Shown piece by piece: positions 4,416 through 52,480 of a stretch of 64,000 nt of DNA; the stretch's first letter is position 1; each line of letters starts with the position of its first letter. The stretch spans positions 82,956 to 146,955 of the forward strand of contig JAZTXH010000016.1 in the NCBI GenBank assembly GCA_045636325.1, given 5' to 3'. The notes beneath the pieces were generated by a model. It saw only the letters and a list, made by a program, of their open reading frames with translations. It was not told where the DNA came from and made no database searches. Source of the stretch: Clostridia bacterium. GTDB taxonomy: Bacteria > Bacillota > Clostridia > UBA1381 > UMGS1253. The translations under genes were made by a program, and so were the position numbers.

Positions 4416-4444
4416 TTGACAATATTACAAATTAGGTATATAAT
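4416..4444 (+). promoter_or_regulatory. ileS leader promoter
   Basis: TTGACA at 4416-4421, a 17-nt spacer, and TATAAT at 4439-4444. Confidence 0.6.
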
Positions 4445-4449
4445 ATCGT

Positions 4450-4756: not shown

Positions 4757-4816
4757 AATTTTATGCCGCAAATACTTATTGTAAAAATATTTAGTTAATA
4801 TAAAGGAGGAAAACCC

Positions 4817-7930: not shown

Positions 7931-7943
7931 TTAATAAGGGTAA

Positions 7944-7980
7944 AAAGGATGTTATGCTTTTTAGGATAACATCCTTTTTG
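7944..7980 (+). terminator. ileS intrinsic terminator
   Basis: aaaggatgttat (7944-7955) pairs with ataacatccttt (7966-7977), followed by a T-run. Confidence 0.75.
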
Positions 7981-8344
7981 AAATAAAACGATTTTTAAAA
8001 TTGTTTAAAAGAATTCGACCTCGCTGTAATTAAAGACATAAATGCATGATTATTGAGTTTTAATTGTGTGTTAATGAAGACCATCCCACACAGTTAAGAT
8101 TCATCGTTTGAGCAGAAATTCCGGATTTAAGAAAAATGGTATGCCAAAAACAAGAGATGACATAAGCTATATTGCCATGTTTTCGCACTAATTTTGTCGT
8201 ATATTGTCTTTTGACTGACAAAATCCGACTTTAATAAAATTTGCTTGCAAAATTTTTCTGATTTTAAAAGCCAATCCTGTTTTGCGCAGTAAAGTTTATG
8301 AAAAATATTGACAAAAAATATTTATCATGATATAATGTGAACAC

Positions 8345-8390
8345 AAGCCACTCCGGTATGTAAACTTTAATTTACATACCGGAGTGGCTT
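8345..8390 (+). promoter_or_regulatory. 20-bp perfect inverted repeat at the 5' end of the glucokinase transcript
   Basis: aagccactccggtatgtaaa (8345-8364) and tttacataccggagtggctt (8371-8390) flank a 6-nt loop. The repeat starts ~8 nt after a TATAAT box (8331-8336). No T-run follows it. Confidence 0.55.
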
Positions 8391-8442
8391 GAGGAAACAA
8401 AAGGTGTTACAGGTAAAAATGAATGTAATCGGAGGAATGATT

Positions 8443-9402: not shown

Positions 9403-9520
9403 TAAAAATGTGCAGATTTTTTTAATCTGCACATTTTTCAAATCAGGATATGCTTGATTTTTTTAGGGAAATATTATAATATATAGTTAGAAAAAATTCA
9501 AATGACAAAGGGGTGAGAAA

Positions 9521-9949
9521 GTGTATATTATATTAAGTCTTACACCGGTAATTTTTAATTATGCGTATATTTTTCTTGAGCCTTTTCACATTCCGCTTTT
9601 GTATTTAATAAGATTTTTCTTAAACTGGGCTATTTTTCCGGTATGCATTGTTTGGATAAATTTTTTAAATGTAATTACCCGTAAAATAAGGCCGTTTTTT
9701 TCTGTGTTTATGAGTTTTTTGGTTATGGCGCTATGTTACGGCAGTGTATATATGACGTATTATATGAAAAACACTGTTCCTCTTGACGATTTTGGTGTAA
9801 AATCAATATTTCTTACGAATTTATATATGTTTGTTCCCTTTGCGGTGGTTTTGGTAATGAATATTATATATAATCTTACTTTGGGAAGAGTGATTAAAAA
9901 AAGAAAAAAAGCGGCAAAAAAAGCAGCAAAAGGCAGACGCAGAGCATAA
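9521..9949 (+). CDS. small polytopic membrane protein with a Lys/Arg-rich tail
   Basis: It has four hydrophobic segments and a KKRKKAAKKAAKGRRRA tail. The start is GTG after AAGGGGTGAG. Confidence 0.5.
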   Translation: MYIILSLTPVIFNYAYIFLEPFHIPLLYLIRFFLNWAIFPVCIVWINFLNVITRKIRPFFSVFMSFLVMALCYGSVYMTYYMKNTVPLDDFGVKSIFLTNLYMFVPFAVVLVMNIIYNLTLGRVIKKRKKAAKKAAKGRRRA

Positions 9950-10265
9950 AAAGTAATTTAAAGGGGCTTTGAAAAATTCTATTTTTAAAATTGTTTTATC
10001 ACAGCATTTATTATCACAAATAAGTTGAGGCGTCAAGGGTAAAGGTATGATTTTTTGTGAATATATGCTATAATGTAAATTAAAAATACACAAGTTTAAA
10101 TAAAAAACATAAAAATTTAAAAATACTATTGACATTGGGGAAAAAATATTGTAAAATAGTTGAGGTGTAAAGGAGAATAACTTTACAGGCGGAGCGCTTT
10201 TGGCAAGTGGGGAAGAAGTTTTGTCCGCATTTTTAAAAAAATATTTGTCAGAGGTGTGAAGTAAG

Positions 10266-10622
10266 GTGAAAGACAATAATAAAAATTTAGAGATTGGTGC
10301 TCTTTTGGATTTCTATGGCAAACTGCTTACGGAAAAGCAGGCAGATGCTCTTGATTTATATTATAATCAGGATTTGTCTTTGGCGGAAATTGCTGAGCTT
10401 ATGGGCATAACAAGGCAGGGCGTAAGGGATAATATTAAAAGGGGCGAAAAGCAGCTTGAGGATTTTGAAGCTGTTTTGCACCTTTGTGAAAAATTTGGTG
10501 AAATTACCACAGTTTGCTCTGTTATGAATGAAAATGCAGTAAAGCTAAAAAAGCTAGGGGTATCAGAAGCAATTGCAGATGAGATTTTATATGGCATTGA
10601 AAAAATAGAGGCTATAATATAG
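10266..10622 (+). CDS. ylxM: YlxM/UPF0122 HTH protein
   Basis: The sequence LSLAEIAELMGITRQGVRDNIKR is present. The gene occupies the conserved position upstream of ffh. Confidence 0.8.
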   Translation: MKDNNKNLEIGALLDFYGKLLTEKQADALDLYYNQDLSLAEIAELMGITRQGVRDNIKRGEKQLEDFEAVLHLCEKFGEITTVCSVMNENAVKLKKLGVSEAIADEILYGIEKIEAII

Positions 10623-10668
10623 AGTAGTGTAAACACTGTTTTTCCGTGTTTATAAAGGAGATATTCAA

Positions 10669-12006
10669 ATGGCATTTGAAGGTTTAGGTGAAAAACTGCA
10701 AAATGTTTTTAAAAAATTAAAAGGCAAGGGTAAGGTTTCGGAAACAGATGTTAAAGAAGCCATGCGTGAGGTTAAGGTTGCGCTTCTTGAGGCGGATGTT
10801 AACTTTAAGGTGGTTAAGGAGTTTGTTAAAACAGTTTCTGAAAAGGCAGTGGGCAGTGATGTGCTTGAAAGCCTTACACCCGGTCAGCAAATAATAAAAA
10901 TAGTAAATGATGAGCTTACAAACCTTATGGGTGCAACTCAGGCGAAGCTTAATTTTTCCAATAATCCGCCTACGGTTATGATGCTTGTGGGCTTGCAGGG
11001 TGCAGGTAAAACAACTACCTGCGGAAAGCTTGCAGGTCAGATAAAAAAGCAAATGGGAAAAAGACCCCTTCTTGTTGCCTGCGATGTGTACCGTCCTGCG
11101 GCAATAAAGCAGCTTCAGGTTGTAGGCAGTCAGCTTGATATTCCCGTGTTTTCCGATGAAGGAAACACAAATCCCGTTGAAATTGCGAAAATGGCTTATG
11201 AACACGCCAAGAAGCATGGCAATGACCCTGTGCTTATTGATACGGCGGGTCGTCTTCATATAAATGAAGAGCTTATGGATGAGCTTAAAAATATCAAAGG
11301 TGAGGTTAAACCCTCTGAAATTCTTTTGGTGGTTGACTCTATGACGGGTCAGGATGCGGTTAATGTGGCACAAAGCTTTAACGAACAGCTTGGCGTTGAC
11401 GGTGTTATATTAACAAAGCTTGACGGTGATACAAGAGGCGGTGCGGCACTTTCGGTGCGTCAGGTAACGGGTAAACCCATAAAATATGTTGGTATGGGCG
11501 AAAAGCTTAATGATTTAGAGCCTTTTTATCCTGACCGTATGGCATCAAGAATTCTTGGTATGGGCGATGTTTTAAGCCTTATTGATAAAGCTCAGGAGGC
11601 TTTTGACGAAGAGCAGACAAGAAAGCTTGAAGCAAAGCTTACAAAAGGTCAGATGGATTTGGAAGACTTTTTGGACCAGCTTCAGCAGATTAAAAAGATG
11701 GGGCCTTTGGAAAGCGTTATAAAAATGCTTCCGGGTGTGGGTTCAAAGTTGCCGTCTGATTTGCAGGTGGATGATAAACAGCTTGGAAGACCTGAAGCTA
11801 TAATCCGTTCAATGACACCTGAGGAAAGAAGAAGACCCGAGATTATAAATGCAAGCCGTAAGGTAAGAATTGCAAACGGTGCAGGTGTTAAGGTGCAGGA
11901 GGTTAATGCTCTTTTAAAACAGTTTGAACAGATGCGTTCAATGGTTAAAAAGTTTTCTGCCCCCGGCGGTATGAAAAAGCTTAAGAGGATGAAATTTCCT
12001 TTTTAG
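10669..12006 (+). CDS. ffh: signal recognition particle protein Ffh
   Basis: It has GLQGAGKTTT, DTAGRL and TKLDGD motifs and a Met-rich M domain. Confidence 0.97.
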   Translation: MAFEGLGEKLQNVFKKLKGKGKVSETDVKEAMREVKVALLEADVNFKVVKEFVKTVSEKAVGSDVLESLTPGQQIIKIVNDELTNLMGATQAKLNFSNNPPTVMMLVGLQGAGKTTTCGKLAGQIKKQMGKRPLLVACDVYRPAAIKQLQVVGSQLDIPVFSDEGNTNPVEIAKMAYEHAKKHGNDPVLIDTAGRLHINEELMDELKNIKGEVKPSEILLVVDSMTGQDAVNVAQSFNEQLGVDGVILTKLDGDTRGGAALSVRQVTGKPIKYVGMGEKLNDLEPFYPDRMASRILGMGDVLSLIDKAQEAFDEEQTRKLEAKLTKGQMDLEDFLDQLQQIKKMGPLESVIKMLPGVGSKLPSDLQVDDKQLGRPEAIIRSMTPEERRRPEIINASRKVRIANGAGVKVQEVNALLKQFEQMRSMVKKFSAPGGMKKLKRMKFPF

Positions 12007-37385: not shown

Positions 37386-38108
37386 ATGAATAGAGAGAAA
37401 TATACTATAGATGATTTATTAATGATAATGAAAAAACTCAGAAGTGATAACGGCTGCCCGTGGGACAGGGCGCAGACTCATGATTCCATTAAAAGCAGCA
37501 TGATAGAAGAGAGCTATGAGGTAATTGATGCTATTGATAAGCATGATGATAAAATGATGGCAAACGAGCTTGGGGATTTGCTTTTGCAGATTGTGTTCCA
37601 TTCTGAAATTGCATCGGAGCGGGGCAAATTTGATTTTTTGGATGTAACTGACGAAATTTCAAGAAAGCTTATAAGCCGTCACAGTCATGTTTTTGGCAGT
37701 GACAGTGCCGGCGATGCTGAAACGGTGTTGGATTTGTGGGATAAAAACAAAAAAGAAGAAAAAGGCTTTTTATCCGCTACTGACACTTTAAGGGATGTTC
37801 CGGAGTCATTTGCGTCACTTATGAGAGCTCAGAAGGTTTTAAAAAGAGCTAAGAAAAGCGGTATGGAGTTTTCACCTGACTTTGGAAATGAAGAAGACAT
37901 TTTAAACAGTATTATTGAATGTGCTTCTGATATGAAAAAAGACATAGCAAACGGTGCAGATGGTGAAGATGGGCTTAAAAAACTTCTTTTGCTGAATGCG
38001 GCGCTTGGCATGGTAATAGGTAAAGAATGCGAAATATTGCTTAAAAAGTCAGTTGATGAGTTTATTGAAAAGTTTAGCGTTTTAGAGCAAGTTGCACAAC
38101 AAAATTAA
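37386..38108 (+). CDS. mazG: MazG-family nucleoside triphosphate pyrophosphohydrolase
   Basis: It contains GCPWDRAQTHDSIK..IEESYEV and ELGDLLLQIVFH. Confidence 0.85.
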   Translation: MNREKYTIDDLLMIMKKLRSDNGCPWDRAQTHDSIKSSMIEESYEVIDAIDKHDDKMMANELGDLLLQIVFHSEIASERGKFDFLDVTDEISRKLISRHSHVFGSDSAGDAETVLDLWDKNKKEEKGFLSATDTLRDVPESFASLMRAQKVLKRAKKSGMEFSPDFGNEEDILNSIIECASDMKKDIANGADGEDGLKKLLLLNAALGMVIGKECEILLKKSVDEFIEKFSVLEQVAQQN

Positions 38109-38262
38109 AAGTTTTTGTGTAAAATGCACTCAAAAAACTGTAAGATGTCCATAAAATAAGGTTTTTTTTGAAAAAATAAAAAAGTTTTTTGAAAAAAATA
38201 AAGGATTTTAAAAAAGGGCATAGAATTTTATATCTGTCAATATTTTTAGGAGGTAATATATA

Positions 38263-38535
38263 ATGAACAAAGCAGAATTAATTGCAAACGTTGCTGCGAC
38301 AGCAGGGTTGACAAAAAAAGATGCAGAAAAGGCTATTAACGCATTTATTGAGAACGTTGAAGGCGCACTAAAGAAGGGTGACAAAGTTCAGTTAGTTGGT
38401 TTCGGTACTTTTGAAGTTCGTGAAATCGCTGAAAGAACAGGCAGAAACCCCGCAACAGGTAAAGAAATTAAGATTCCTGCTTGCAAGAAACCCGCTTTCA
38501 AAGTTGGTCAGGGTCTAAAGAACGCTCTTAACTAA
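38263..38535 (+). CDS. hup: HU DNA-binding protein
   Basis: It contains MNKAELI...GFGTFEVRE.AERTGRNPATGKEIKIPA. Confidence 0.95.
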   Translation: MNKAELIANVAATAGLTKKDAEKAINAFIENVEGALKKGDKVQLVGFGTFEVREIAERTGRNPATGKEIKIPACKKPAFKVGQGLKNALN

Positions 38536-38611
38536 TTAAGAAAAAAGACTGTTCCGTATAAAATGCGGAGCAGTTTTTTTGTTAATACAAAAGGTATAAA
38601 AGGAGAAAAAT

Positions 38612-38851
38612 ATGAGACTTGATAAATATTTAAAGATATCACGGCTTATAAAGAGGCGCAGTGTGGCAAATGAGGCTTGTGATACGGGCAGAATTTATGT
38701 AAATGGTAAAGTTTGCAAAGCATCCTACGATGTTAAGGTAGATGATATTATTGAAATACACTTTGGCGAAAAAATTGTTAAAGCAAAGGTTTTAAAGGTG
38801 GTCGAGCATGCTTTAAAAGACGATGCCGCACTTATGTATGAAATTCTGTAG
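38612..38851 (+). CDS. S4-domain RNA-binding protein (YabO-like)
   Basis: It begins MRLDKYLKISRLIKRRS and is syntenic with yabP. Confidence 0.8.
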   Translation: MRLDKYLKISRLIKRRSVANEACDTGRIYVNGKVCKASYDVKVDDIIEIHFGEKIVKAKVLKVVEHALKDDAALMYEIL

Positions 38852-38927
38852 TTCTAAAAATAATATGTCTTCATATATTTATAATACTAAAAAAAGCTAC
38901 TGTTTATGTGGCAGATTGGAGACATAT

Positions 38928-39200
38928 ATGGCAAGCTTAGCTGAAAATGAAAGACATAGCTTAACTATGGAAAACAGAAACCGCGTTTTTATAACCGGCG
39001 CTACAGAACTTGAAAACTTTGAAGAAAAAAATATGACAATTAAAACTACTATGGGACTTCTTTTTTTAAAGGGCGAAGATATGCATATTATCAAATTTGA
39101 CACTGATGCAGGAGAAATCGTGATTGAAGGTGAATTTGATGCGGCAGAATATGCTGAAAGTGACGGAAAGGGCAGCTTTTTATCCAGGCTGTTTGGGTAA
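38928..39200 (+). CDS. yabP: sporulation protein YabP
   Basis: The pattern HSLTMENRNRVFITGATELENFEE..MTIKTTMGLLFLKGEDMHI matches YabP. Confidence 0.8.
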   Translation: MASLAENERHSLTMENRNRVFITGATELENFEEKNMTIKTTMGLLFLKGEDMHIIKFDTDAGEIVIEGEFDAAEYAESDGKGSFLSRLFG

Positions 39201-39205
39201 GGTTT

Positions 39206-39772
39206 ATGTCAGCCGGACTTAATGAACAGCTGTGGATTTTTCTCTTGATGCTTGTTTATGGGGCGGTAGCGTCAGGTATATTTGACATTTTAAGAAGCAT
39301 ATACCGCATTTTTAAACCATCTGCCTTGACTGTGGGGATAGGGGATATTCTTTTTTGGCTTGTAATAAGCGTGTTGACGTTTTTTGCAATTTTTATATCA
39401 AATAACGGGCAGATTCGTTTATTTGAGTTTTTTGCTATGATTCTGGGCAGTATTATTTATTTTCTAACGCTGTCGAAGGCAGTAATTTTTATGTTTTCGG
39501 CGGTGTTTTTCTGTTTAAAAAAAATTTTTATATTTTTTTTAAAATTTTTCTTGACTATTGCGCGATTTTTGTATAAAATGGTATTAAGAGTTTTTGTGGG
39601 TATTTTTATGCCCGTTTTTAAATTGATAAAGAAAATCAGGGCGTGGCTGTGGCTTGTTTGCTTCCGTTTTAAGAAGAGAGCGGGAGCTATATTTAAAGCA
39701 AAACGCAGGGCGAAAAAAATGAGTAAACAAAAAAGGGAAAGGAGGCTAATGCATGCAAAAGAAAAAGAATAA
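39206..39772 (+). CDS. yabQ: spore cortex protein YabQ-like
   Basis: It is a membrane protein containing NNGQIRLFEFFAMILGSIIYF. It sits after yabP and has a long Lys-rich tail. Confidence 0.6.
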   Translation: MSAGLNEQLWIFLLMLVYGAVASGIFDILRSIYRIFKPSALTVGIGDILFWLVISVLTFFAIFISNNGQIRLFEFFAMILGSIIYFLTLSKAVIFMFSAVFFCLKKIFIFFLKFFLTIARFLYKMVLRVFVGIFMPVFKLIKKIRAWLWLVCFRFKKRAGAIFKAKRRAKKMSKQKRERRLMHAKEKE

Positions 39773-40064
39773 CAAAAGAAAAAAAAGTGTAAGCGCGCTT
39801 CATGTGTTTTTGCGCGTGTTTACTATTGTTTTTGCAGTGTTCACTATTGTTAAAGTTATCGCGCAGCAGCCTCTTTTAGGTCAGTATGATAATAAACTGG
39901 ATGAGTATGACAATCTGATTGCTGAAGAAAATGAGAAGATTGAATATTACGGCAATTTAAAAGAGCTTTATAAGACGGAGGAATATAAAATCCTTATAGC
40001 CAAGGAAAGGCTTGGGTTGCTTGAAGAAAATGAAAAGGTTTACATTGCCGCAAACGGTGAGTAA
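39753..40064 (+). CDS. divIC: septum formation initiator (DivIC/FtsB family)
   Basis: It has an N-terminal TM helix and a coiled coil, and contains KERLGLLEENEKVYI. Confidence 0.7.
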   Translation: MQKKKNNKRKKSVSALHVFLRVFTIVFAVFTIVKVIAQQPLLGQYDNKLDEYDNLIAEENEKIEYYGNLKELYKTEEYKILIAKERLGLLEENEKVYIAANGE

Positions 40065-40146
40065 TACGGTTTGGGGATTTATAAAATATGTATAGATAAC
40101 AAAACGGAGTATGTGGCATATACTCTTGAGGGGGAAAGCTGTTTTT

Positions 40147-40614
40147 ATGGCACTTGAAGTTGGAGCAGTAGTTGAGGGAAAGGTTGTAAGCATAATGCCT
40201 TTTGGTGCGTTTGTTTCGCTTCCCGAGGGGAAAACAGGATTGGTACATATTTCGGAGGTATCACTTGATTATGTTGAAAATGTTGCAGAGCATTTAAGTG
40301 AAAATCAGGAGGTTCGTGTTAAGGTTGTTGGAATCGATCCTAAAGGAAAGATAAGTCTTTCTATTAAAAAAGTTCTTTTGGATGAGAAAAAGGTGGCTCC
40401 GGCAAAGAAGCAGGAGCGAAGTCAGGTGCATGTAAGACCGGCGAATATTGATTGGCTTAGTAATAATTCAAACACATCTGCGGATTTGTCTTTTGAAGAT
40501 ATGTTAGGCAAGTTTAAAACTGACAGTGATGAAAAAATGCAGGCGCTAAAGCGCAGCAGTGAATCAAAGCGCAGAGGCGGTTACAAGCGTTCATCTGGAA
40601 ATAATTATTTTTAA
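40147..40614 (+). CDS. S1-domain RNA-binding protein (YabR-like)
   Basis: It contains VGAVVEGKVVSIMPFGAFVSLPEGKTGLVHISEVS. Confidence 0.85.
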   Translation: MALEVGAVVEGKVVSIMPFGAFVSLPEGKTGLVHISEVSLDYVENVAEHLSENQEVRVKVVGIDPKGKISLSIKKVLLDEKKVAPAKKQERSQVHVRPANIDWLSNNSNTSADLSFEDMLGKFKTDSDEKMQALKRSSESKRRGGYKRSSGNNYF

Positions 40615-41797: not shown

Positions 41798-42592
41798 TTA
41801 TTTTATATATGGTCTTACCGGCTGACCGTTTGCTGAAAGGTATTCTTTTAATTCACGAACGGAATAGTTTCTGTCCATCTTCGGTGAATAAAGCATAGAG
41901 CTTATAATACCTGCAGATGCACCGGTTTTTGAAAATACATCCCAAAGATGCTCAGGCTTTCCTGCACCGCCTGATGCAATAACGGGGATGTTAACCGCAT
42001 CAGAAATCATTTTTGTAATCTCTAAATCATAACCCTGATGAGTACCGTCGTTATCAATTGAATTTACGCAGATTTCACCTGCACCAAGAGCCTCACCGCA
42101 TTTTGCCCAGGACAGAGCATCAATACCTGTAAATACTCTTGCACCATCAATTGCAATTTCGTATCCGCTGGGGATTTCAAGGGTTTTTTCAACTTTTTTT
42201 ACCTGCATACTAAGCACGATACACTGACTTCCGAATGCCTTTGCGCCCTCTTTTATTATCCATGGCTGACGCACTGCCATAGAGTCAATGCTGATTTTTT
42301 CGGCGCCGGCCTTTAAAACCTCATACATATCGTCAAGATTTCTGATGCCACCACCAACAGTAAAGGGAACAAATACGTTTTCTGCTACCATTTTAACTGT
42401 GTCTATATCAATTTTTCTTCTTTGTGCACTTGCAAGAATATCAAAGAAAATAATTTCGTCTATCTGGTCTGCATATATTTTTTTTGCAACAACCTCTGCT
42501 TTGTCTATGTCAATATTATTCTGAAATTTATGTGCCTTTGTAACCATTTTATCACGTATATCAAAGCACGCAATAAGTCTTTTTGTAAGCAT
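41798..42592 (-). CDS. HisF-family (beta/alpha)8-barrel protein, divergent paralog
   Basis: It contains KRLIACFDI, TVGGGIR and VIASGGAGKPEH. The position I align with cyclase Asp130 (AIDAK) reads SMQVK. No other his genes are in the window. Confidence 0.8.
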   Translation of the reverse strand: MLTKRLIACFDIRDKMVTKAHKFQNNIDIDKAEVVAKKIYADQIDEIIFFDILASAQRRKIDIDTVKMVAENVFVPFTVGGGIRNLDDMYEVLKAGAEKISIDSMAVRQPWIIKEGAKAFGSQCIVLSMQVKKVEKTLEIPSGYEIAIDGARVFTGIDALSWAKCGEALGAGEICVNSIDNDGTHQGYDLEITKMISDAVNIPVIASGGAGKPEHLWDVFSKTGASAGIISSMLYSPKMDRNYSVRELKEYLSANGQPVRPYIK

Positions 42593-42612
42593 TTTTCACC
42601 CTCCTTTAAAAA

Positions 42613-43212
42613 TTATAGCTTTGCGAAGTTTTCCAAAAGCTTAAGGCCAATTTCACCGCTTTTTTCAATGTGGAACTGAGAAGCGTAAACATTGTCTTTT
42701 GCTATCATGGATGTAAAGTCTTCCCCGTAATTGGTAACAGCTAGAGCCACGTCTTCTTTCGGGCGGATGTGATAAGAGTTTACAAAATAAAAATATTCAC
42801 TTTTGCCAAGACCTTCGTTAATGGGAAGTTTTTTTAAAAATTCTGCACTGTTCCAGCCCATCTGTGGAACTCTTACCTTGTTTTCATCAAAGCGGACAAC
42901 GTCGCCTTTTATCCAGCCTAAACAACAGGCATCGTCTTCTTCGCTATGCTCAAATAAAACCTGAAGTCCAACGCATATTCCAAGGAAGGGCTTTTTTTCT
43001 TTCAGGGCATGATTTTCAAGAGTTTCTATTATATCAAGCTCTTTTAATGAATCCATTGTTGCACCCGCGCTTCCTACGCCGGGAAGAATTATGTGTGAAC
43101 AATTTTTTAAAGTCTCTTTGTCTGCGGTCAGCACACATTCAAGATTTTTTGCTTTGCAGGCATTTTCCACACTGGGGCCGTTACCTGCCTTGTAATCAAT
43201 TATACCTATCAT
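42613..43212 (-). CDS. HisH-family class I glutamine amidotransferase
   Basis: It has the nucleophile elbow LGICVGLQ and the His/Glu pair in QFHIEKS. Confidence 0.85.
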   Translation of the reverse strand: MIGIIDYKAGNGPSVENACKAKNLECVLTADKETLKNCSHIILPGVGSAGATMDSLKELDIIETLENHALKEKKPFLGICVGLQVLFEHSEEDDACCLGWIKGDVVRFDENKVRVPQMGWNSAEFLKKLPINEGLGKSEYFYFVNSYHIRPKEDVALAVTNYGEDFTSMIAKDNVYASQFHIEKSGEIGLKLLENFAKL

Positions 43213-43225
43213 TTAAAATCTCCTC

Positions 43226-43957
43226 TTACTTTTTGTTTCTGTTTATTATAAACTGTTTTGCCTGAGCTTCAAAATCGTCACAAAGCTCTTTTAAATCTTC
43301 TTTAAAGTTAGGATATTTATTTAAAATTGCTTTTTTAATCAAAAAATCTGCAAGCTCTGGATTTTTTGGCAGTATCGGACCGCACATATAAGTTCCGATA
43401 ACGTTTTTATAAAAAATTCCTTCATATTCACCTTTATCCCCGCGGCCAAACAAAACCTTGCCCAAAGGCGAAAAATTATCTGATTTTGTTTTGTTTTTAT
43501 GATTTTCAAAGCCTGCAAGAATAACAGCTTTGCCGTCAAGCTCTGATTCAAGCGCAAAATCGCCCATAAAACTACCGTCTGTTTCAAAACTTTCGGCATC
43601 TAAAATTCCAAGTCCTGTATAAGTTTTGCCGCCCATCTCAAAGGTTTTTAAAAGCATCTGATAACCTGTATGAGTGGCAAGCAAAACACCGCCGTTTTCT
43701 GCAAATTCCTTTATTTTATCAGCGTGGGGAAGAAGAATGTCCAAAGCTTTTAAGACTTCTTTTTCGCCGCCACCGCCGATTAAAACAATATCTGTATTTT
43801 TAACTAAAAACTCGCCTGATGATACAAAATCACAGCAGACCGCATTAATGCAGCGTTTTTGGCATCTCATTTTTAAAACGCTTACATTTCCCGTATCACC
43901 TGAAAGATTCAAAAGGTCAGGACAAAGATTTAAAATTTTAATTGAATAATCAGCCAT
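43226..43957 (-). CDS. gatD: GatD-like (CobQ-type GATase) subunit of lipid II isoglutaminyl synthase, atypical active site
   Basis: It contains LNLSGDTGN, FENH and YKNVIGTYMCGPILPKNPE. Its ATG overlaps the murT stop (TAATG). The expected Cys elbow reads ATHTGYQ, and the expected HGP reads CGP. Confidence 0.75.
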   Translation of the reverse strand: MADYSIKILNLCPDLLNLSGDTGNVSVLKMRCQKRCINAVCCDFVSSGEFLVKNTDIVLIGGGGEKEVLKALDILLPHADKIKEFAENGGVLLATHTGYQMLLKTFEMGGKTYTGLGILDAESFETDGSFMGDFALESELDGKAVILAGFENHKNKTKSDNFSPLGKVLFGRGDKGEYEGIFYKNVIGTYMCGPILPKNPELADFLIKKAILNKYPNFKEDLKELCDDFEAQAKQFIINRNKK

Positions 43958-45324
43958 TACTCTTTATCCCCCTTTTCTGAAAGTCCTTTAAGCACAAGAT
44001 ACGCAGGATGCATGGTTGTATAGTTTACAAGAGCATAACAAACCTTTTCGCCTCCTAAAAGCATAAGAGAAATTGCTTCTTCAATGTTTTCTGCGATTTT
44101 CATAACTGACTCATCTGCTCCAGCATATTTTAACCTTAAATACATATCGTGTTTTCTTATGCCACCAAAGGTGTATGATGAAGTTTTGCTCTCACAAAGG
44201 GTTTCAAAATCAACATCATAAATCCACGAAATATCAACCCCGTCTGAGGGATTATCATTCAGTAGAATACAAACATCTTTTGCTCTCGGATCATTTATAA
44301 CAGCCGTGACAGATTGATTAAAGCCGGTTGGATTTTTTGAAAGCACAATATAAATTTCCTTGTCACCTATATTGAATTTGCTCATTCGGCCCGGTTCAGG
44401 CTTTTGATTTGAAAGAACATTTTTTATGGTATCTTCATTTATTCCAATAGAATTTAAAACACTGTATGCCCCTAAAAGATTGTATACATTATAAAGTCCG
44501 GTTACGTGGCTTGTAAGGCGGAAGGATTTTTTGCTCAGTTTATTTATATCAAATCTAAGAGTGCCGTCTTCAATTTTTATATTTGTCGCACTGTAGACGG
44601 AATCGGGATTTTTATATCCGCATTTTTGGCATTTGTATTTACCAAGTTGGCCGTAATTATAATATTCATAGTCCATTAATGTAGAGCATTTCGGGCACTC
44701 TGACCCATAGTGACGCTCACGAAGAGTAATTAAATCCGTCTTTTGGCCTATGCAGTAGTATATATTTTCTTTTTTAGTTTCAAAAACTGATGTAACAGGG
44801 TCGTCAGCATTTAAAACAAGTTGAGCATGGGGGGCAAGAAGAAACGCTTTTTTCAAAAGCTTTGATGTGCCCTCTATTTCGCCGTAACGGTCAAGCTGGT
44901 CACGGAAAAGATTAGTAACGGTAATCACATCAGGGGTAAGATGGCGGAAAAGCAGGTGCAGATTTGCCTCGTCAACCTCAAGGGTTGCAAAGTCTGCATC
45001 GAGTTTGCCGAAAAATTTAGCTTTTTTTGCAAAGCTTGCGGCAATACCGCCTAACATATTTGCGCCCACATTATTGCAAACGATTTTGTTCCCTGCTTTT
45101 AGAAGAACGGAATTTATAAGGTTGTTTGTTGTTGTTTTTCCGTTTGTTCCGCACACTATAATTATTTTTTCTTTTATCTGTTTTGCCATAAGGTCTATAA
45201 AATCCGGGCATATTTTAAGGGCAATGTTTCCTGGTGCCGTTGACCCGCGCGATTTTAACACACTGCAGATAAAAAATACTGCCTTTGCCGCCAAAGTGGC
45301 AATAAATAATTTAAGTTTTTTCAA
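43957..45324 (-). CDS. murT: MurT, Mur-ligase-family subunit of lipid II isoglutaminyl synthase
   Basis: It contains GTNGKTTT, NLFRDQLDRYGE and the Cys4 ribbon CPKC...CQKC. Its C-terminal DUF1727-like region contains DGVDISWIYDVDFE. Confidence 0.85.
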   Translation of the reverse strand: MKKLKLFIATLAAKAVFFICSVLKSRGSTAPGNIALKICPDFIDLMAKQIKEKIIIVCGTNGKTTTNNLINSVLLKAGNKIVCNNVGANMLGGIAASFAKKAKFFGKLDADFATLEVDEANLHLLFRHLTPDVITVTNLFRDQLDRYGEIEGTSKLLKKAFLLAPHAQLVLNADDPVTSVFETKKENIYYCIGQKTDLITLRERHYGSECPKCSTLMDYEYYNYGQLGKYKCQKCGYKNPDSVYSATNIKIEDGTLRFDINKLSKKSFRLTSHVTGLYNVYNLLGAYSVLNSIGINEDTIKNVLSNQKPEPGRMSKFNIGDKEIYIVLSKNPTGFNQSVTAVINDPRAKDVCILLNDNPSDGVDISWIYDVDFETLCESKTSSYTFGGIRKHDMYLRLKYAGADESVMKIAENIEEAISLMLLGGEKVCYALVNYTTMHPAYLVLKGLSEKGDKE

Positions 45325-45534
45325 ATATCATCATTTCTTTCCAAAAAAATATCAACCTATATTATAACACAGAATAAACCAAATTACAACTGATTTTCAC
45401 AATGTGAAACGTAATATTTTCATTTTTTTTAAAAAATTGCGGATTTTTTATGTTTTTTTTTCAGAACACTTGAATTTTTTTAAAAAATATGGTATCACTA
45501 TATAGTAGAAACTTCAAAAAAGGGTGATGCAGAA

Positions 45535-46518
45535 ATGAAGATAAGAATAGGTATTTTAGGTTATGGTAATCTTGGGAGAGGTGTTGAAAGCGCGGTGTAT
45601 AACAGTGCGGATATGCAGATTGTTGCATTATTTACCCGTCGCGACCCTGAAAGCATAAAAACAATGACGGATACTCCCGTTTATTATATTGATAAAATTG
45701 TTGAAATGAAAGACGAAATTGACGTTTTGATTGTTTGTGGCGGCAGCGCAAACGACCTTCCGATGCAGACACCTGAGATGGCAAAGTATTTTAATGTTAT
45801 TGACAGCTTTGACACTCATGCAAAAATTCCAGAGCATTTTGAAAATGTTGATAAAAGCAGCAAGGAAAGCGGAAAAATCAGTATAATTTCAGCTGGCTGG
45901 GACCCAGGTCTGTTTTCTTTAAACCGCCTTATGGGTCAGGCAATTTTACCGGATGGTTGTGATTATACCTTTTGGGGAAAGGGCATAAGCCAAGGGCACA
46001 GTGATGCAATTCGCAGAATTGAGGGCGTTTTGGATGCAAGGCAGTATACTGTTCCCGTGCCTGAAGCGTTAGAGAGCGTAAGAGCGGGTGAAAATCCGGA
46101 GCTTACTACACGGCAGAAACATACAAGAGAGTGCTTTGTTGTGGCAGAAGACGGAGCAGATTTAGCGCGTATTGAAAGAGAAATTAAAACAATGCCCAAC
46201 TATTTTGCTGATTATGATACAACAGTTAATTTTATTACAAAAGAAGAACTTGAGCTTGACCATAAGGGTATTCCTCACGGGGGCATGGTATTCAGAACGG
46301 GCAAAACCGGATTAAACGGCGAAAACAGCCATATTATAGAATACAAGCTAAGCCTTGAGTCTAACCCTGAATTTACATCAAGCGTTTTAGCAGCTTATGC
46401 AAGAGCAGCATACAGATTAAATCAAGAAGGGGTGAGCGGTTGCAAAACAGTTTTTGATATTGCGCCTTCATATCTTCATCCGAAAAGCGGTTCAGAATTG
46501 AGAAAAGAACTTTTATAA
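45535..46518 (+). CDS. ddh: meso-diaminopimelate D-dehydrogenase
   Basis: It contains IGILGYGNLGRGVE, GWDPGLFS, FWGKGISQGHSDAIRRI and HGG. It is collinear by eye with C. glutamicum Ddh. Confidence 0.85.
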   Translation: MKIRIGILGYGNLGRGVESAVYNSADMQIVALFTRRDPESIKTMTDTPVYYIDKIVEMKDEIDVLIVCGGSANDLPMQTPEMAKYFNVIDSFDTHAKIPEHFENVDKSSKESGKISIISAGWDPGLFSLNRLMGQAILPDGCDYTFWGKGISQGHSDAIRRIEGVLDARQYTVPVPEALESVRAGENPELTTRQKHTRECFVVAEDGADLARIEREIKTMPNYFADYDTTVNFITKEELELDHKGIPHGGMVFRTGKTGLNGENSHIIEYKLSLESNPEFTSSVLAAYARAAYRLNQEGVSGCKTVFDIAPSYLHPKSGSELRKELL

Positions 46519-46688: not shown

Positions 46689-47510
46689 TCAGAATTTTCT
46701 ATATTCACCTGCCGATTTGCCTTTTAACTGTTTAAATATACGGGAAAAATGACCATAATCAGAAAAACCGATTGCATAGGCAATAGATGTTATAGGCATG
46801 TTTGTTTCTTTCAGCATGCGGCAAGCTTCATTAATTCGATAATTTCTTATATAAGTGGCAATACTGCAGTTTAAATATTTATTCGCAATACTATATAGAC
46901 GGGTTCTTTTTATATGGAAAACAGAGCATAGATCCTTAGCTGTGATAGTATATGATAAATTATCTTTAATATATTGGTCCAGTTGTATGATAAATTCATT
47001 CTTTGCAGGAGTAACCCATTCGTTAGAAAGGAAATATGCTGAAAGTGATTTTAAAATAGTGATACATGCATCAAGTTCTTCCAATGATTTTACAGGAATG
47101 TTGTCTATTGCATTATATATTCCCGGAAAATTTTCATCAGTGAAATTTTGTTTTAAATGACGGCGTGTTTTTTCTGCAGTGTTTTCAGTAAGAACTTGCC
47201 CGAACATAACAAATCCAAGAATTTCACCCTTGTCACATATAGGTACTATTGCTTCGGATAAACCTAAATGGCATTTGTAATGCATATCTTTTTTCAATTT
47301 TGAACAGGTATCAAAATTTGAATAGTCACAATCTTTGCATTTTTTGCTCCAAAGAGAATTTTTATCAATAATTCTGCAGAATTCAATATCTTCCTCAGGG
47401 TATGATAATAAACGTTTGCCGTTGTTATCGTATAAAACTATTTTTATATTGGTAAGAGTGTGAAAATCCTGAAAAGCTTTATTTAAATTTTCTATATTAA
47501 GATTTAACAT
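46689..47510 (-). CDS. AraC-family regulator with an N-terminal PocR-like sensor domain
   Basis: It has a C-terminal AraC double HTH (ITSIAYAIGFSDYGHFSRIFK) and a Cys-rich N-terminal domain. Confidence 0.75.
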   Translation of the reverse strand: MLNLNIENLNKAFQDFHTLTNIKIVLYDNNGKRLLSYPEEDIEFCRIIDKNSLWSKKCKDCDYSNFDTCSKLKKDMHYKCHLGLSEAIVPICDKGEILGFVMFGQVLTENTAEKTRRHLKQNFTDENFPGIYNAIDNIPVKSLEELDACITILKSLSAYFLSNEWVTPAKNEFIIQLDQYIKDNLSYTITAKDLCSVFHIKRTRLYSIANKYLNCSIATYIRNYRINEACRMLKETNMPITSIAYAIGFSDYGHFSRIFKQLKGKSAGEYRKF

Positions 47511-47669
47511 ATTATCACCATAAAAATTATATCAAATTATAAGGGGGAAATCAATGAAATATAAAAAAAATATTCGCACACGAACAAATATTACATAAAA
47601 CAGACAAATTTATCTTTTATTTAGTTTTTATTCAATGTAAAATATAATCGAAATGGAGGTAGTGATAAT

Positions 47670-48686
47670 ATGAAGTATAATGGGAAGGATTTTGCCGATA
47701 TTTCGCCATATGTGGGAAATATGTATCAATTATTCGGAACACGTCGTTATCAGCTTACTGAAGGTGAAAGTAACGGCTGCAGATGTATTGATGTCCGTAC
47801 AGGCAGTGGTTTGGAATATACTGTGGTTTGTGATCGCGGTCTTGACATATCTCTGGCGGCATATAAAGGAACAAATTTGGTATTTCTTACTCAAAATTCA
47901 GAAGCAAATCCTGCATATTATAATCCTCATGCTTCTGAGTGGCTGCGCACATTTACAGCAGGGTTGCTTACAACATGTGGGCCACAAAATCTTAGTTCTC
48001 CATGTGAGGATAATGGGGAAGAATTAGGGCTTCATGGCAGATGGAGTTCCCTTTGTGCAAAACAGGTATGTGAGTTTGTTGACACAGAAAAGGGAGAAAT
48101 ACGAATAAGCGGCACATTAAATGACGCGGTTACAATGGGGAATAAGCTTAGTATTAGAAGAAATATATCTTCTCAGATTGGTAAATCTGTTATTGTAATT
48201 GATGATGAAATAAAAAATGAGGGTAGCAGACCGGCACCGCTTAATGTATTGTATCACATTAATTTTGGTTATCCTTTTTTGGATGAAAATACACAAATAG
48301 AAATACCATCCAAGTCTTTTTGCGGTTATAACGAGTATACTAACGAGCGAATAGATGAAATAGCAACTATCAAAAAGCCATACTCATATGCCTGCGAAAA
48401 AAATTATCTGCATACTTTTGACGGAGGACTGGTAACAGCAAGAGTGTATAATCCGACTCTGTGTGGTGGATTAAATGTATATATTAAATTTAATTCGGAG
48501 GTTTTGCCGTATATGACCCAGTGGGTGCTTGAAGATTACAAGGATTACGTTCTTGCAATCGAGCCGGCAAATGTACCTTGTGAGTCAAGAAATAAACTTC
48601 GTGAAAAAGGTATGTTACCCGAAATTGCGCCGGGGGAGACAAAAAAATTTCATGTGGAAATTGAAATTGCTTCAGAAAAAGCATAA
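47670..48686 (+). CDS. aldose-1-epimerase-like protein (DUF4432 type)
   Basis: It is 338 aa, contains GLHGR and HINFGYPF, and is the first gene of the sugar operon. Confidence 0.6.
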   Translation: MKYNGKDFADISPYVGNMYQLFGTRRYQLTEGESNGCRCIDVRTGSGLEYTVVCDRGLDISLAAYKGTNLVFLTQNSEANPAYYNPHASEWLRTFTAGLLTTCGPQNLSSPCEDNGEELGLHGRWSSLCAKQVCEFVDTEKGEIRISGTLNDAVTMGNKLSIRRNISSQIGKSVIVIDDEIKNEGSRPAPLNVLYHINFGYPFLDENTQIEIPSKSFCGYNEYTNERIDEIATIKKPYSYACEKNYLHTFDGGLVTARVYNPTLCGGLNVYIKFNSEVLPYMTQWVLEDYKDYVLAIEPANVPCESRNKLREKGMLPEIAPGETKKFHVEIEIASEKA

Positions 48687-48727
48687 AGATATACAACATA
48701 AAAATATATAAAAAGGAGTTAATTAAA

Positions 48728-50107
48728 ATGGTTAAATCAAAAGCAGCATTTGTAGTATATGGTGTTCATAAGGACGGACTTTGTGACCCGGACGGAAATC
48801 TTTTTATCGATGAAGGTCTTATTCTAAATTCTAAAGAAGCATTAAAAAACCAAGGTGTTGAGCTTGTGACACCTGAGCTTATTATAGCAACTAAACAAGA
48901 AGCGAAAGAAATTATTCTTCCTCTTGCAAAGGATGACAGTATTGATACTTTAGTTCTGTTTTCAGGAACATGGGTATGGGCAGCACATATGATAGCTGCA
49001 GTACGCGAATTTGCCAAAACAGGCAAAGGAATTGTTATATGGACTCACGACGGTTCACAGGGATGGCGTCCGGTTGGCGGCCTTGTGCTTAGTGCGGCAC
49101 TTAATGAAGTTGGAATAAAACACAAATTTGTATATGGTGGCGCAGATGATATTACTACAGTAAAAAGAGTTGCTAATTACTGTAAAGCATCTGCACTTAA
49201 AAAGAGTATGGAAATGACAACGCTTCGTTCATTTGGCGGACGCGGTATGGGTCAGACTTGCGGAGCTGCAGACCCATCACAGTGGATGCGTATGTTCGGA
49301 ATTGATATCGATTCACGTGATACATACGAGCTTGTTGAAGCTGCAAAAAATATTCCTCAGGAAGAGGTAGATAAAATCTGTGATTACATAGATGCAAACT
49401 TTAAATCCAAGGTAGATCGTAATGACGGAAATTATCGTTCTATACGCTTGTATCTTGCTCTTAAAGCACTTAAAGAAAAAGACGGATTTGATTATTATAC
49501 AATTCAGTCTTTCCCCGGCATGGGCGATTACTATGCGGCAACTTGTTTTGCACAAAGTATGATGCTTAACGATGGGGTGCCAACCTCTACTCTATCTGAT
49601 TTTAACACCTGCTTAACTTCAATTATGATTATGGGGCTTAGCAAAGAGCCTATCTATTACGGAGACCTTCAGCATGCAGATAAGAAGGCGGGAGAAATAA
49701 AAATTATCGGAGACGGCGCTATACCTCCATGTCTTGCAAATGAAGATGGTGTTTATCTTGCCGGCCACGGAATTCCTACAGAGGGAGAAGCAGGAGGCCT
49801 TTCAATAGATCTCGTATGTAAGAGTGGAAAAGGTGTTATTGCACGCTTAAGCCGTATTAATGGTAAGTTTAAAATTGTTGTTGCTAGATGTGAAGTTTTC
49901 CAGCCTGCAAAAGAAGAACTTGAAAAGCGTCGCCATGAATGCGGTATTCCTTTCTGGCCTCATGCTTTTGTTAAAGTTGAAGGTGATGTTGGTCAAATTA
50001 TAGAAAATTGGAATAACGAATACGGATGTCTTGGTTACGGCGAAGACCTTTATGACCAGATTGTTGATTTTGGCGAGATTATGGGTATTGAAGTTGTTGC
50101 ATTTTAA
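48728..50107 (+). CDS. L-fucose/L-arabinose isomerase-family protein (short form, 459 aa)
   Basis: The call rests on size, overall pattern, and the isomerase-kinase-aldolase context. The substrate is unknown. Confidence 0.6.
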   Translation: MVKSKAAFVVYGVHKDGLCDPDGNLFIDEGLILNSKEALKNQGVELVTPELIIATKQEAKEIILPLAKDDSIDTLVLFSGTWVWAAHMIAAVREFAKTGKGIVIWTHDGSQGWRPVGGLVLSAALNEVGIKHKFVYGGADDITTVKRVANYCKASALKKSMEMTTLRSFGGRGMGQTCGAADPSQWMRMFGIDIDSRDTYELVEAAKNIPQEEVDKICDYIDANFKSKVDRNDGNYRSIRLYLALKALKEKDGFDYYTIQSFPGMGDYYAATCFAQSMMLNDGVPTSTLSDFNTCLTSIMIMGLSKEPIYYGDLQHADKKAGEIKIIGDGAIPPCLANEDGVYLAGHGIPTEGEAGGLSIDLVCKSGKGVIARLSRINGKFKIVVARCEVFQPAKEELEKRRHECGIPFWPHAFVKVEGDVGQIIENWNNEYGCLGYGEDLYDQIVDFGEIMGIEVVAF

Positions 50108-50125
50108 AAGAAGGGAGCTTAGGCT

Positions 50126-51631
50126 ATGCTTATAGGCGGGCTTGATGTAGGAACAACTGGAACAAAGCTTACAGTATATGATACATGTGGCTGTTTTGTA
50201 GAAAATGAATATGTAGAATATGATGTGTCAAGAAAAAATGGCGAAGACGAAATTGATGTGGATGTAATTTTTGCCGCTGTTTGCGATGTTATATCAAAAA
50301 CAGTAAAAAAACATCCTGATCTCGCGGCAATAGGGGTTACAACCTTTGGCGAAACCTTTACAGTTCTTGATGAAAATAACAAGCCTTTATTTCCGGCTAT
50401 GCTTTATACTGATCCAAGAGGAGAAGAAGAAAGCCTGTTGCTTTGCAATTCTATAGGTATTAAAAATCTAAGAAGCATAACCGGTGTTAACCCTCATCAA
50501 ATGTATTCAATTCCTAAAATGATGTGGCTTAAGAATAAAAATCCCGAAGTGTTTGCAAAAGCAAAAAGAATACTTCTTATGGGCGATTATATAGTGTATA
50601 TGCTTACAGGGAAAGCCCAGATAGATTATTCGCTTGCAGCAAGAACTATGGCATTTGATATAGTTGAAAAGAAATGGAGCTCCCAGATTCTTAACTGTGC
50701 CGGCATAGATGAAAGTTTGTTATCCGTACCGGTTCCTACAGGCACACTTGCCGGAACTATATTAAATGACTTGGCAAAAAAGCTTGGGACCTCTGAAAAT
50801 CTTAAGATTGTTACCGGATGTCATGACCAAATAGCCGCGGCTGTCGGAGCTGGAGTTTTTGAATCAGGACAAGCTGTTGACGGAACAGGAACAGTTGAAT
50901 GCGTTACGCCTGTTTTTGACGGTATTCCTGATAATGATGGCATATATGATGGTGGGTATTCTGTAGTTCCGTATGTTTTTGAAAACAAATATGTTTGCTA
51001 TGCCCTGTCATATGCCGGCGGTGCAACTTTGAAATGGTATAGAGATTGTTTTGCAAAATACGAAAAGGAGCTTGCTTGTGAAACAGGCGAAAATGTGTAT
51101 GCATTGCTTGATAAACAGGTATCATCAGCTCCTACGGATTTACTTGTGCTTCCTCACTTTGCCGGAGCGGCGACACCATACATGGATGTTAATGCAAAAG
51201 GTGCAATTATAGGTCTTACTTTTGAACATACAAGCGCAGATATTTATAAGGCAATAATGGAAGGCGCAACTTATGAAATTATGATGAACACGGATCATCT
51301 TAGCAATTTTGGTATTAAAATTGATGAGTTATATGCAACAGGCGGTGGAGCATCGTCTCCGATATGGTTGCAGATTAAAGCGGATATCTTAAACAGACCT
51401 ATAACAACACTTGAATCCCGTGAGGTAGGTGCCTGTGGAATATGTATGCTTACAGCAGTCGCAGTAGGTGCTATAAATAACTTAGCTGAAGCAAAGAAAT
51501 TGTTTGTAAAACAAAATAAAACGTATTATCCGCACGCTGAAAATTCAGCGAAATATAATAAAAACTTTGAAGCATATAAAATGATTTATGATGCAGTACG
51601 CCCTGTTATATCTAAGATTATGGAGGAATAA
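50126..51631 (+). CDS. FGGY-family carbohydrate kinase
   Basis: It contains IGGLDVGTTGTK, GCHDQIAAAVGAG and ATGGGASSPIWLQI. Confidence 0.85.
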   Translation: MLIGGLDVGTTGTKLTVYDTCGCFVENEYVEYDVSRKNGEDEIDVDVIFAAVCDVISKTVKKHPDLAAIGVTTFGETFTVLDENNKPLFPAMLYTDPRGEEESLLLCNSIGIKNLRSITGVNPHQMYSIPKMMWLKNKNPEVFAKAKRILLMGDYIVYMLTGKAQIDYSLAARTMAFDIVEKKWSSQILNCAGIDESLLSVPVPTGTLAGTILNDLAKKLGTSENLKIVTGCHDQIAAAVGAGVFESGQAVDGTGTVECVTPVFDGIPDNDGIYDGGYSVVPYVFENKYVCYALSYAGGATLKWYRDCFAKYEKELACETGENVYALLDKQVSSAPTDLLVLPHFAGAATPYMDVNAKGAIIGLTFEHTSADIYKAIMEGATYEIMMNTDHLSNFGIKIDELYATGGGASSPIWLQIKADILNRPITTLESREVGACGICMLTAVAVGAINNLAEAKKLFVKQNKTYYPHAENSAKYNKNFEAYKMIYDAVRPVISKIMEE

Positions 51632-51634
51632 ACA

Positions 51635-52480
51635 ATGCTTGTAACATTAAAAGAAATTTTAAAAATTGCCAACGAACGAAAGTGCGCAATTGGCTCATTT
51701 AACACACCAAATATGGCAACTATTAAAGCTGTTATTGGCGGGGCAGAGGAAATGAATGAACCTGTAATAATAATGCATGCACAGGTGCACGAAGAAATGG
51801 GTGTTTGCAAGATGAGTGAGATTGCGCCTGTTATGCTTAATATGGCAGATAAAGCAAAGGTACCGGTATGTGTGCATCTTGACCACGGCACAGACCTTGG
51901 ATATGTTAAAAAAGCAATTGAATCAGGGTTTACCTCTGTAATGTATGATGGTTCAGAACTTCAAACATTTATGAATTATGTAAATACTTCTGTTGCCGTA
52001 AAACTTGCAGAAAAAACGGGTGCATCCGTAGAGGCAGAAATTGGTTCTATGGGCAAACGTGAAGGCGGCGGAGGAGAGGGAACAAGTATTTATACTGACC
52101 CTGATGAAGCAAAAGATTTTGCAGAAAAAACAGGTATAGATGCACTTGCGTGTGCATTTGGAACTGCACACGGTATGTATTTAAAAAAACCGAAGCTTGA
52201 TTTTGAAAGATTGGAAACAATAAAATCAAAGGTTCAAATTCCTCTTGTAATGCATGGCGGCTCAGGCGTTAGCCCTGAGGATTATACAAGAGCCATAAAG
52301 TGTGGAATACGTAAAATAAATTACTATACATATATGGCAAATGCAGGAGGTCGTGCGGTAGAAAAGCTGTTTAGAAAGACCTATTATCATGATATAGAGT
52401 TAGCTGCTATTGAAGCTATGAAAGATGATGTTAAAACAGCAATAAATGTATTTTCAGGGCAGAATAGACCTGGATTGTAA
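51635..52480 (+). CDS. class II (FbaA/GatY-type) ketose-phosphate aldolase
   Basis: It contains AIGSFN, VHLDHG, FGTAHG and MHGGSG. Confidence 0.85.
   Translation: MLVTLKEILKIANERKCAIGSFNTPNMATIKAVIGGAEEMNEPVIIMHAQVHEEMGVCKMSEIAPVMLNMADKAKVPVCVHLDHGTDLGYVKKAIESGFTSVMYDGSELQTFMNYVNTSVAVKLAEKTGASVEAEIGSMGKREGGGGEGTSIYTDPDEAKDFAEKTGIDALACAFGTAHGMYLKKPKLDFERLETIKSKVQIPLVMHGGSGVSPEDYTRAIKCGIRKINYYTYMANAGGRAVEKLFRKTYYHDIELAAIEAMKDDVKTAINVFSGQNRPGL

Follow-up and report, generated by a model that had tools for sequence, protein, structure and literature searches.

Linkage of murT and a degenerate gatD to a divergent hisH-hisF pair in a conserved gene block of uncultured Clostridia

MurT/GatD is essential to staphylococci, pneumococci and mycobacteria, in which it serves as a drug target. 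It has been described as self-contained and glutamine-dependent, and murT-gatD pairs are reported to be widespread in Clostridiales (PMC6085368). In Staphylococcus aureus, MurT alone is inactive, a complex containing GatD C94G loses glutamine-dependent activity while keeping NH3-dependent lipid II amidation at pH 8.5, and at neutral pH NH3 is no substrate for MurT/GatD (PMC3266927); each of the GatD substitutions C94A, H189A and R128A fully abolishes glutaminase activity (PMC5871853). Here we analyze a murT-gatD-hisH-hisF block on the minus strand of a 64-kb stretch of the Clostridia bacterium contig JAZTXH010000016.1 (this whole stretch is referred to as the window). The locus differs from known MurT/GatD systems in that its operon continues with two more amidotransferase genes and in that the GatD-like protein is predicted to have lost glutaminase catalysis. 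Its novelty is thus a natural MurT variant with a putative pseudo-GatD, together with a conserved operon fusion to the probable imidazole glycerol phosphate (IGP) synthase of a clade that lacks Asp130 of HisF. A literature search for MurT, GatD and HisF together returned no relevant paper.

For the hisH-hisF half of the block, the systems suited to comparison are the IGP synthase of Thermotoga maritima (1gpw/1thf), the split histidine pathway of Roseburia and, in concept, the WbuY/WbuZ-type paralogs, in which a stand-alone HisH/HisF-like pair likewise accompanies an ATP-dependent amidating enzyme. Roseburia species, which are gut Clostridia, have a complete his pathway whose hisF-hisH genes form their own operon, away from hisGZDB-EI, with other his genes located beside glutamine synthetase; the window resembles them in its stand-alone pair and differs in the linkage to murT-gatD, which is not reported there (PMC7478625).

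A HisF scan over one genome per GTDB species yielded 25 loci, in which the blocks were located by tblastn. The whole murT-gatD-hisH-hisF block is present in every scanned locus whose HisF is at least 81% identical to that of the window, and altogether 12 distinct loci have it (the window, L003, L007-L015 and L030), of which L003 is a Logan contig reached via a GatD homolog; a second contig, L004, has the same proteins. Since the same block is present in 12 distinct loci, the adjacency is not a matter of chance. An earlier note on this DNA had named neighborhood conservation in Clostridia as a check on its proposals, and absence of the adjacency from related genomes as grounds for abandoning them; the arrangement proved to be conserved. 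The records of the linked loci are labeled as uncultured Clostridia, Candidatus Aphodoplasma, Oscillospiraceae or Bacillota metagenome-assembled genomes (MAGs), and several record titles from the scan give a gut or fecal origin. The flanks of the block vary, a divergent diaminopimelate (DAP) dehydrogenase gene being present in only some loci. The gatD and hisH genes overlap (ATGA) in four of the 12 linked loci and are joined by a short junction in the others, for which the start calls are approximate. Mean pairwise identities across the 12 loci are 89.5% for HisF, 73% for HisH, 59% for MurT and 51% for GatD; GatD has therefore evolved faster than the other three proteins, and HisF more slowly than any.

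In the window, the four genes are likely to form a single operon. The open reading frames and junctions on which this proposal was originally based were reproduced exactly: murT and gatD overlap by 1 nt (TAATG), gatD and hisH are separated by 13 nt, and hisH and hisF by 20 nt, with AGGAG or AGGAGG sequences resembling ribosome-binding sites 5' of both hisH and hisF (AGGAG before the ATG of hisH). No terminator-like site was found at any junction of the block, and the promoter-like site upstream of murT (Table 1) matches the consensus at 10 of 12 positions and is the only site of the region with an extended -10 element. The promoter-like sites are consensus matches only, and their total in the region is not above that of shuffled controls; a single transcript from a promoter upstream of murT would nevertheless agree with the close junctions. 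A further, weaker promoter-like match, inside the 3' end of gatD, could allow some independent expression of hisHF, although it too is a consensus match at a frequency not above chance. An Rfam scan of the window, in which a T-box or a glutamine riboswitch was sought, matched only one tRNA.

MurT of the window contains the Pfam domains Mur_ligase_M and MurT_C (DUF1727), and its best solved relatives are the MurT proteins of Streptococcus pneumoniae (6fqb, E 1.7e-71) and S. aureus (E 4.5e-71). The alignment to these chains is full-length and includes the GTNGKT P-loop, the catalytic/Mg-binding glutamate (in EVDE), the Cys4 ribbon (CPKC...CQKC) and the equivalent of Asp349 (the GVD of NDNPSDGVD), the last of which is invariant in the linked loci. 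Pfam and alignment thus bear out the P-loop, Cys4 ribbon and DUF1727-like tail that had been recognized by eye, and we regard the protein as a predicted intact, ATP-dependent amidating subunit. Its scores with the NCBIfam MurT equivalog models (299.5 and 282 bits) fall a long way short of the cut-off of 800, and the DNAAD motif reads DNPSD. Both features would fit a MurT-like enzyme that amidates a carboxylate other than D-Glu of lipid II, in which case the considerations on GatD and HisHF given below would be inapplicable. However, the full-length match to both solved MurT proteins (E ~1e-71), the retained P-loop, glutamate, Cys4 and Asp349, and the wide distribution of murT-gatD in Clostridiales (PMC6085368) make a different substrate very unlikely.

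The GatD-like protein is a member of Pfam GATase_3 and aligns with S. aureus GatD (5n9m/6gs2) at E ~4e-36. As in the MurT/GatD systems of S. aureus, S. pneumoniae and Mycobacterium tuberculosis, murT and gatD form an overlapping unit in which a CobB/CobQ-type GATase fold directly follows MurT, the MurT motifs are present, and the MurT-contact segment of GatD, (H)GPxLPxN, is kept (CGPILPKN in the window, only the His being altered). Unlike in those systems, the catalytic residues are absent. In S. aureus numbering, the alignment to solved chains shows Cys94 replaced by His and His189 by Cys, and the family alignment shows the oxyanion residue Gly95 replaced by Thr and the glutamine-binding Arg128 by Ser; furthermore, the window MurT and GatD both remain below their NCBIfam equivalog cut-offs. 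With all four residues replaced, glutamine cannot be the donor through this GatD, which we predict to be a pseudo-glutaminase that has kept its fold and MurT-contact motif and lost catalysis. The earlier note had called the gene GatD-like, but the loss of its catalytic residues had gone unnoticed. A dead yet retained GatD is biochemically sensible because the S. aureus C94G complex uses NH3 and MurT alone is inactive.

It could be argued that His94 and Cys189 form a swapped dyad and that the protein is still a glutaminase, which would leave MurT/GatD self-sufficient. The H/C combination is shared with a 78%-identical homolog (P0002), and the structure of the S. aureus protein places the side chains of these two residues 3.7 Å apart (PMC6113224). 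However, Gly95 of the nucleophile elbow and oxyanion hole and the glutamine-binding Arg128 are lost as well, and the combinations found in sister loci (C/Y, S/S, C/C and C/N) cannot form a dyad. The site therefore looks like the result of drift after inactivation, and we consider a functional swapped dyad extremely unlikely.

Within the linked lineage, the GatD dyad is broken in seven of the 12 loci and intact in the other five (Table 1). In a neighbor-joining tree of concatenated MurT, HisH and HisF, built without bootstrap support, the loci with degenerate GatD fall into two subclades that are separate from each other and whose sister groups have an intact dyad, and the dyad has therefore apparently been lost at least twice. 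The HisH triad is invariant across the same loci while GatD decays. Among GatD homologs generally, 108 of 120 have the canonical C/H dyad. Broken-dyad gatD genes were also found beside an apparently normal murT in four loci that have no hisHF nearby (L005, L006, L112 and L114), the sequence of L115 breaking off too soon to be counted; GatD decay therefore occurs independently of a neighboring hisHF. Conversely, an intact dyad persists in five of the 12 linked loci, which shows that a decayed GatD is neither a prerequisite of the linkage nor an immediate consequence of it. GatD decay is thus enriched in the linked lineage, yet not dependent on the linkage, and pseudo-GatD proteins seem to recur in Clostridia.

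Turning to the second pair, HisH scores 216 bits with TIGR01855, well above the equivalog cut-off of 105, and its Cys-His-Glu triad is intact; GICVGLQ and FHxEKS (FHIEKS in the window) are invariant in all aligned loci. HisF scores 204 bits with the His_biosynth barrel model PF00977 and 277.4 bits with TIGR00735, the latter falling short of the cut-off of 294.55. Aligned with T. maritima HisF (1thf), to which it is 41% identical, it keeps Asp11 (in CFD) and the gate residues R5, E46, K99 and E167, and it carries the substitutions N103D, T104S and D130Q. The Cys elbow and His/Glu pair of HisH, the conserved CFD and the Gln at the position of cyclase Asp130, all of which had been read from the letters alone, are therefore confirmed. 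The pair is like the T. maritima IGP synthase in its HisH triad, HisF Asp11 and gate residues, in its GGG and SGG segments, in the adjacency of hisH and hisF and in having clade relatives inside his operons; it is unlike it in the three substitutions, which are clade-wide, and in the low identity and sub-threshold score of HisF. Unlike the IGP synthase genes of his operons, it lies apart from other his genes, behind murT-gatD.

This isolated position, together with an analogy drawn in the earlier note, raises the reading that the pair represents WbuY/WbuZ-type (HisH2/HisF2) paralogs serving acetamidino formation on a glycan or nonulosonic acid. A few distant clade members (L025, L050 and L051) do lie beside a DegT-type aminotransferase gene and a second His_biosynth-like gene. 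However, the window HisF scores only 224 with the WbuZ model TIGR03572 (cut-off 299.7) and 186 with the AglZ/HisF2 model NF038364 (cut-off 310), both below its hisF score of 277.4; no WbuX-type or polysaccharide gene is present among the neighbors scanned; and its nearest relatives beyond the linked lineage include members of his operons, with 74–76% identity. On the basis of model scores and gene context we reject the WbuY/WbuZ assignment, whose remaining probability we regard as negligible, and with it the analogy.

The affinities of the window HisF become clearer within its clade, for which we assembled the 25 genome loci and 80 metagenome loci from the clade alignment, 106 sequences in all. 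D103/S104/Q130 occurs in every one of these 106 sequences of a Clostridia-centered clade; because one of the scan patterns included SIDS, D103 and S104 were partly selected for, whereas Q130 was in no pattern. R5, D11, E46, K99 and E167 are kept in nearly all members. Nine clade members reside inside his operons (Table 1), among them two complete operons with a Q130-type HisF that were recovered when the HisA of L036 was used as a query for HisA homologs, and the window HisF is 74–76% identical to the his-operon HisF proteins for which this was measured. The murT-linked lineage is monophyletic and nested within the Q130 clade. Compared with the other 94 sequences, the linked HisF proteins have five lineage-specific positions (G15K, 41, 53, 221 and 257); the catalytic and ammonia-gate positions that were checked, as well as N103/T104, are not among them. 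Strong conservation of HisF extends to the whole clade; between L016 and L036, for example, HisF is 81% identical and HisD 72%.

The earlier note had taken D130Q and the stand-alone position as marks of a non-histidine paralog. This is not supported, given that D103/S104/Q130 is universal in the clade, that nine members lie in his operons and that no divergence of the active site separates the linked lineage from relatives in his operons. Since Q130 members fill the hisF slot of his operons, Asp130 may be dispensable or relocated in this clade, the obvious candidate for a relocated residue being Asp103 on the neighboring strand. Judging from the clade signature, the his-operon members, the few private substitutions and the Roseburia precedent, the HisH/HisF pair is most likely a genuine IGP synthase, and the organism's own; a histidine function of hisHF in this genome would follow from these comparisons.

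Most other clade members are stand-alone hisH-hisF pairs, often near genes for type III glutamine synthetase (GS-III), gatCAB, VanY or glutamate dehydrogenase. The location of such pairs beside glutamine and ammonia genes suggests shared nitrogen-related regulation, and the GS-III and gatCAB neighbors of the Q130-clade relatives are a further likeness to Roseburia. In two termite-gut Oscillospiraceae MAGs (L024 and L027), a gene for a VanY-type D-Ala-D-Ala carboxypeptidase lies directly 5' of hisH-hisF or hisF, a further case, after murT-gatD, of the pair lying next to a peptidoglycan gene. Two other loci have unusual his operons: that of L120 is without hisH and ends in a fusion protein with a degenerate HisF-like domain, and that of L118 is fragmented, owing either to long-read indel errors or to decay of the operon, while the near-identical operon of L119 is intact.

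DAP dehydrogenase assimilates ammonium directly. In the window its gene, encoding a further enzyme of peptidoglycan-precursor synthesis beside murT, is transcribed divergently from the operon, and the same neighbor is found in five other linked loci (L003, L009, L010, L011 and L030). Free ammonia is the most likely nitrogen source for MurT here; indirect support comes from the NH3-dependent activity of the C94G complex of S. aureus, from the gut or fecal origin given in several record titles and from the adjacent DAP dehydrogenase gene.

The reading that we favour on balance, although with only modest confidence, is that two separate amidotransferase systems have been brought together in a composite operon specific to this lineage. 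What was observed directly is the order of the genes and its conservation, the states of the residues and membership of the clade. MurT would carry out ATP-dependent amidation of the D-Glu of lipid II, its predicted function, with free ammonia; GatD, its glutaminase chemistry lost, would be kept as the structural partner that MurT needs; and HisH/HisF would be the organism's housekeeping IGP synthase, from a divergent, mainly clostridial Asp130-to-Gln clade. The four genes would be co-transcribed from the promoter upstream of murT, with translational coupling of gatD and hisH in some relatives, and there would be no direct hand-over of ammonia between MurT/GatD and HisHF.

Several observations weigh against this composite operon. 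The block has been retained amid changing flanks while MurT diverged to 50% identity, and this retention, together with the ATGA overlaps, exceeds the linkage that neutral accident usually leaves. The broken dyad is far more common in the linked lineage (7/12, in two subclades) than among the 120 homologs. No hisG, hisD, hisC, hisB, hisA or hisI gene was found in the 64-kb window, as the earlier note had observed for the surroundings of the pair, or within ~10 kb of any linked locus. Finally, Asp130 counts as an essential residue of T. maritima HisF (PMC5919458), and IGP synthase activity of the D130Q clade is predicted from operon context.

In a rival reading, HisH would hydrolyze glutamine and ammonia would pass via the HisF barrel to MurT/pseudo-GatD, whether or not the IGP role is kept; HisH/HisF would then have been recruited as glutaminase and ammonia conduit of MurT, letting GatD decay repeatedly into a scaffold. 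MurT has to obtain nitrogen from some donor, and NH3 at neutral pH does not serve the S. aureus MurT/GatD complex (PMC3266927). Consistent with a relay, the block persists in 12 loci despite variable flanks, the gatD-hisH junctions are close or overlapping, GatD is dead in seven of the 12 loci and in two subclades while neither the HisH triad nor the HisF gate residues vary, and GatD evolves fastest (51%) and HisF slowest (89.5%). However, the linked lineage shows no HisF or HisH change of its own at functional sites, the same clade serves his operons, HisF is highly conserved clade-wide, dead GatD proteins exist without hisHF, and five linked loci have an intact dyad. Moreover, the HisH glutaminase normally needs N'-[(5'-phosphoribulosyl)formimino]-5-aminoimidazole-4-carboxamide ribonucleotide (PRFAR) bound to HisF, and the ammonia ends inside the barrel; we know of no demonstrated precedent for a hand-over of ammonia from HisHF to another enzyme. 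The alternative ammonia source put forward in the earlier note has thus gained a rationale from the dead GatD and lost ground to the dead GatD proteins without hisHF and the five intact dyads. The case for MurT/GatD and HisHF working together is weak; a four-component machine is not demonstrated, and we hold both the relay and a recruitment of HisH/HisF by MurT to be unlikely.

As for its wider surroundings, the operon is placed between a sporulation/housekeeping block and a sugar-catabolism cluster (Table 1), and its further neighbors include a HAD hydrolase gene as well as sugar-catabolism genes.

Table 1. Features of the window and of the compared loci (coordinates are those of the respective sequence; GatD residues are numbered as in S. 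aureus)
Locus	Feature	Coordinates	Strand	Description
Window	hisF	41798-42592	minus	264 residues
Window	hisH	42613-43212	minus	199 residues
Window	gatD-like	43226-43957	minus	243 residues; GatD residues 94/189 H/C
Window	murT	43957-45324	minus	455 residues, TTG start
Window	promoter-like site 5' of murT	45361-45389	minus	TTGTAA-17-TATAAT, TG ahead of -10
Window	promoter-like match inside gatD 3' end	43245-43272	minus	TTGAAG-16-TATAAT, ~30 nt before hisH start
Window	meso-DAP dehydrogenase (DAPDH_C)	45535-46518	plus	divergent from murT
Window	sporulation/housekeeping block	37386-40614		conserved; mazG, yabP, yabQ-like and divIC-like ORFs, S1-domain protein; judged by eye: HU, S4-domain protein
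Window	sugar-catabolism cluster	46689-52480		PocR/AraC regulator, DUF4432, fucose-isomerase-like gene, FGGY kinase; judged by eye: class II aldolase
L003	GatD residues 94/189			C/Y
L007	GatD residues 94/189			S/S
L009	GatD residues 94/189			C/C
L010	GatD residues 94/189			C/N
L011	GatD residues 94/189			C/Y
L030	GatD residues 94/189			C/Y
L008, L012-L015	GatD residues 94/189			C/H, intact dyad
L005	gatD	10001-10711		C/D; no hisHF nearby, then unrelated genes
L006	gatD	10001-10717		S/H; no hisHF nearby, then unrelated genes
L112	gatD	6001-6720		A/H; then feoAB, no hisHF
L114	gatD	2410-3132		G/H; then membrane protein, no hisHF
L016	his operon			full hisZ-G-D-C-B-A-H-F-I operon
L036, L047, L049, L054	his operon			hisA-hisH-hisF-hisI and upstream his genes as far as contigs reach
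L094, L107	his operon			hisF, then hisG-hisD
L116, L119	his operon			full operons; HisF with SMQ and SID
L017, L019, L020, L035, L055	stand-alone pair			hisH-hisF-gatCAB
L018, L043, L044, L081-L084, L090, L099	stand-alone pair			GS-III near hisH-hisF
L024	VanY-type gene and hisHF	7887-9188		termite-gut Oscillospiraceae MAG
L027	VanY-type gene and hisHF	8902-10032		termite-gut Oscillospiraceae MAG
L025	distant member	8499-11259		beside second, weak His_biosynth-like gene and DegT-type sugar aminotransferase gene
L050, L051	distant members			as L025; one of the three is a Paracoccaceae MAG with an adjacent transposase; sole WbuZ-like context in the clade
L120	fusion gene	7739-9037		432 residues, degenerate HisF-like domain + HisI + HisE, after hisZ-G-D-B-A
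L118	his operon	4073-8352		fragmented hisD, hisB and hisH

MurT partners with a dead glutaminase appear at least twice in the linked lineage and at least four times in other Clostridia, implying that gut anaerobes amidate their peptidoglycan with another nitrogen source, either free ammonia or, less likely, ammonia from the co-transcribed HisH/HisF. Furthermore, a large clade of HisF proteins that lack Asp130 and yet serve his operons calls into question the catalytic model generally accepted for IGP synthase, and it explains why annotation models under-call these HisF proteins. If hisHF is only the housekeeping IGP synthase, the operon is a gene-order curiosity. If, on the other hand, recruitment were true, it would represent a natural replacement of the glutaminase of one amidotransferase by that of another pathway, and a four-protein complex for the amidation of lipid II.

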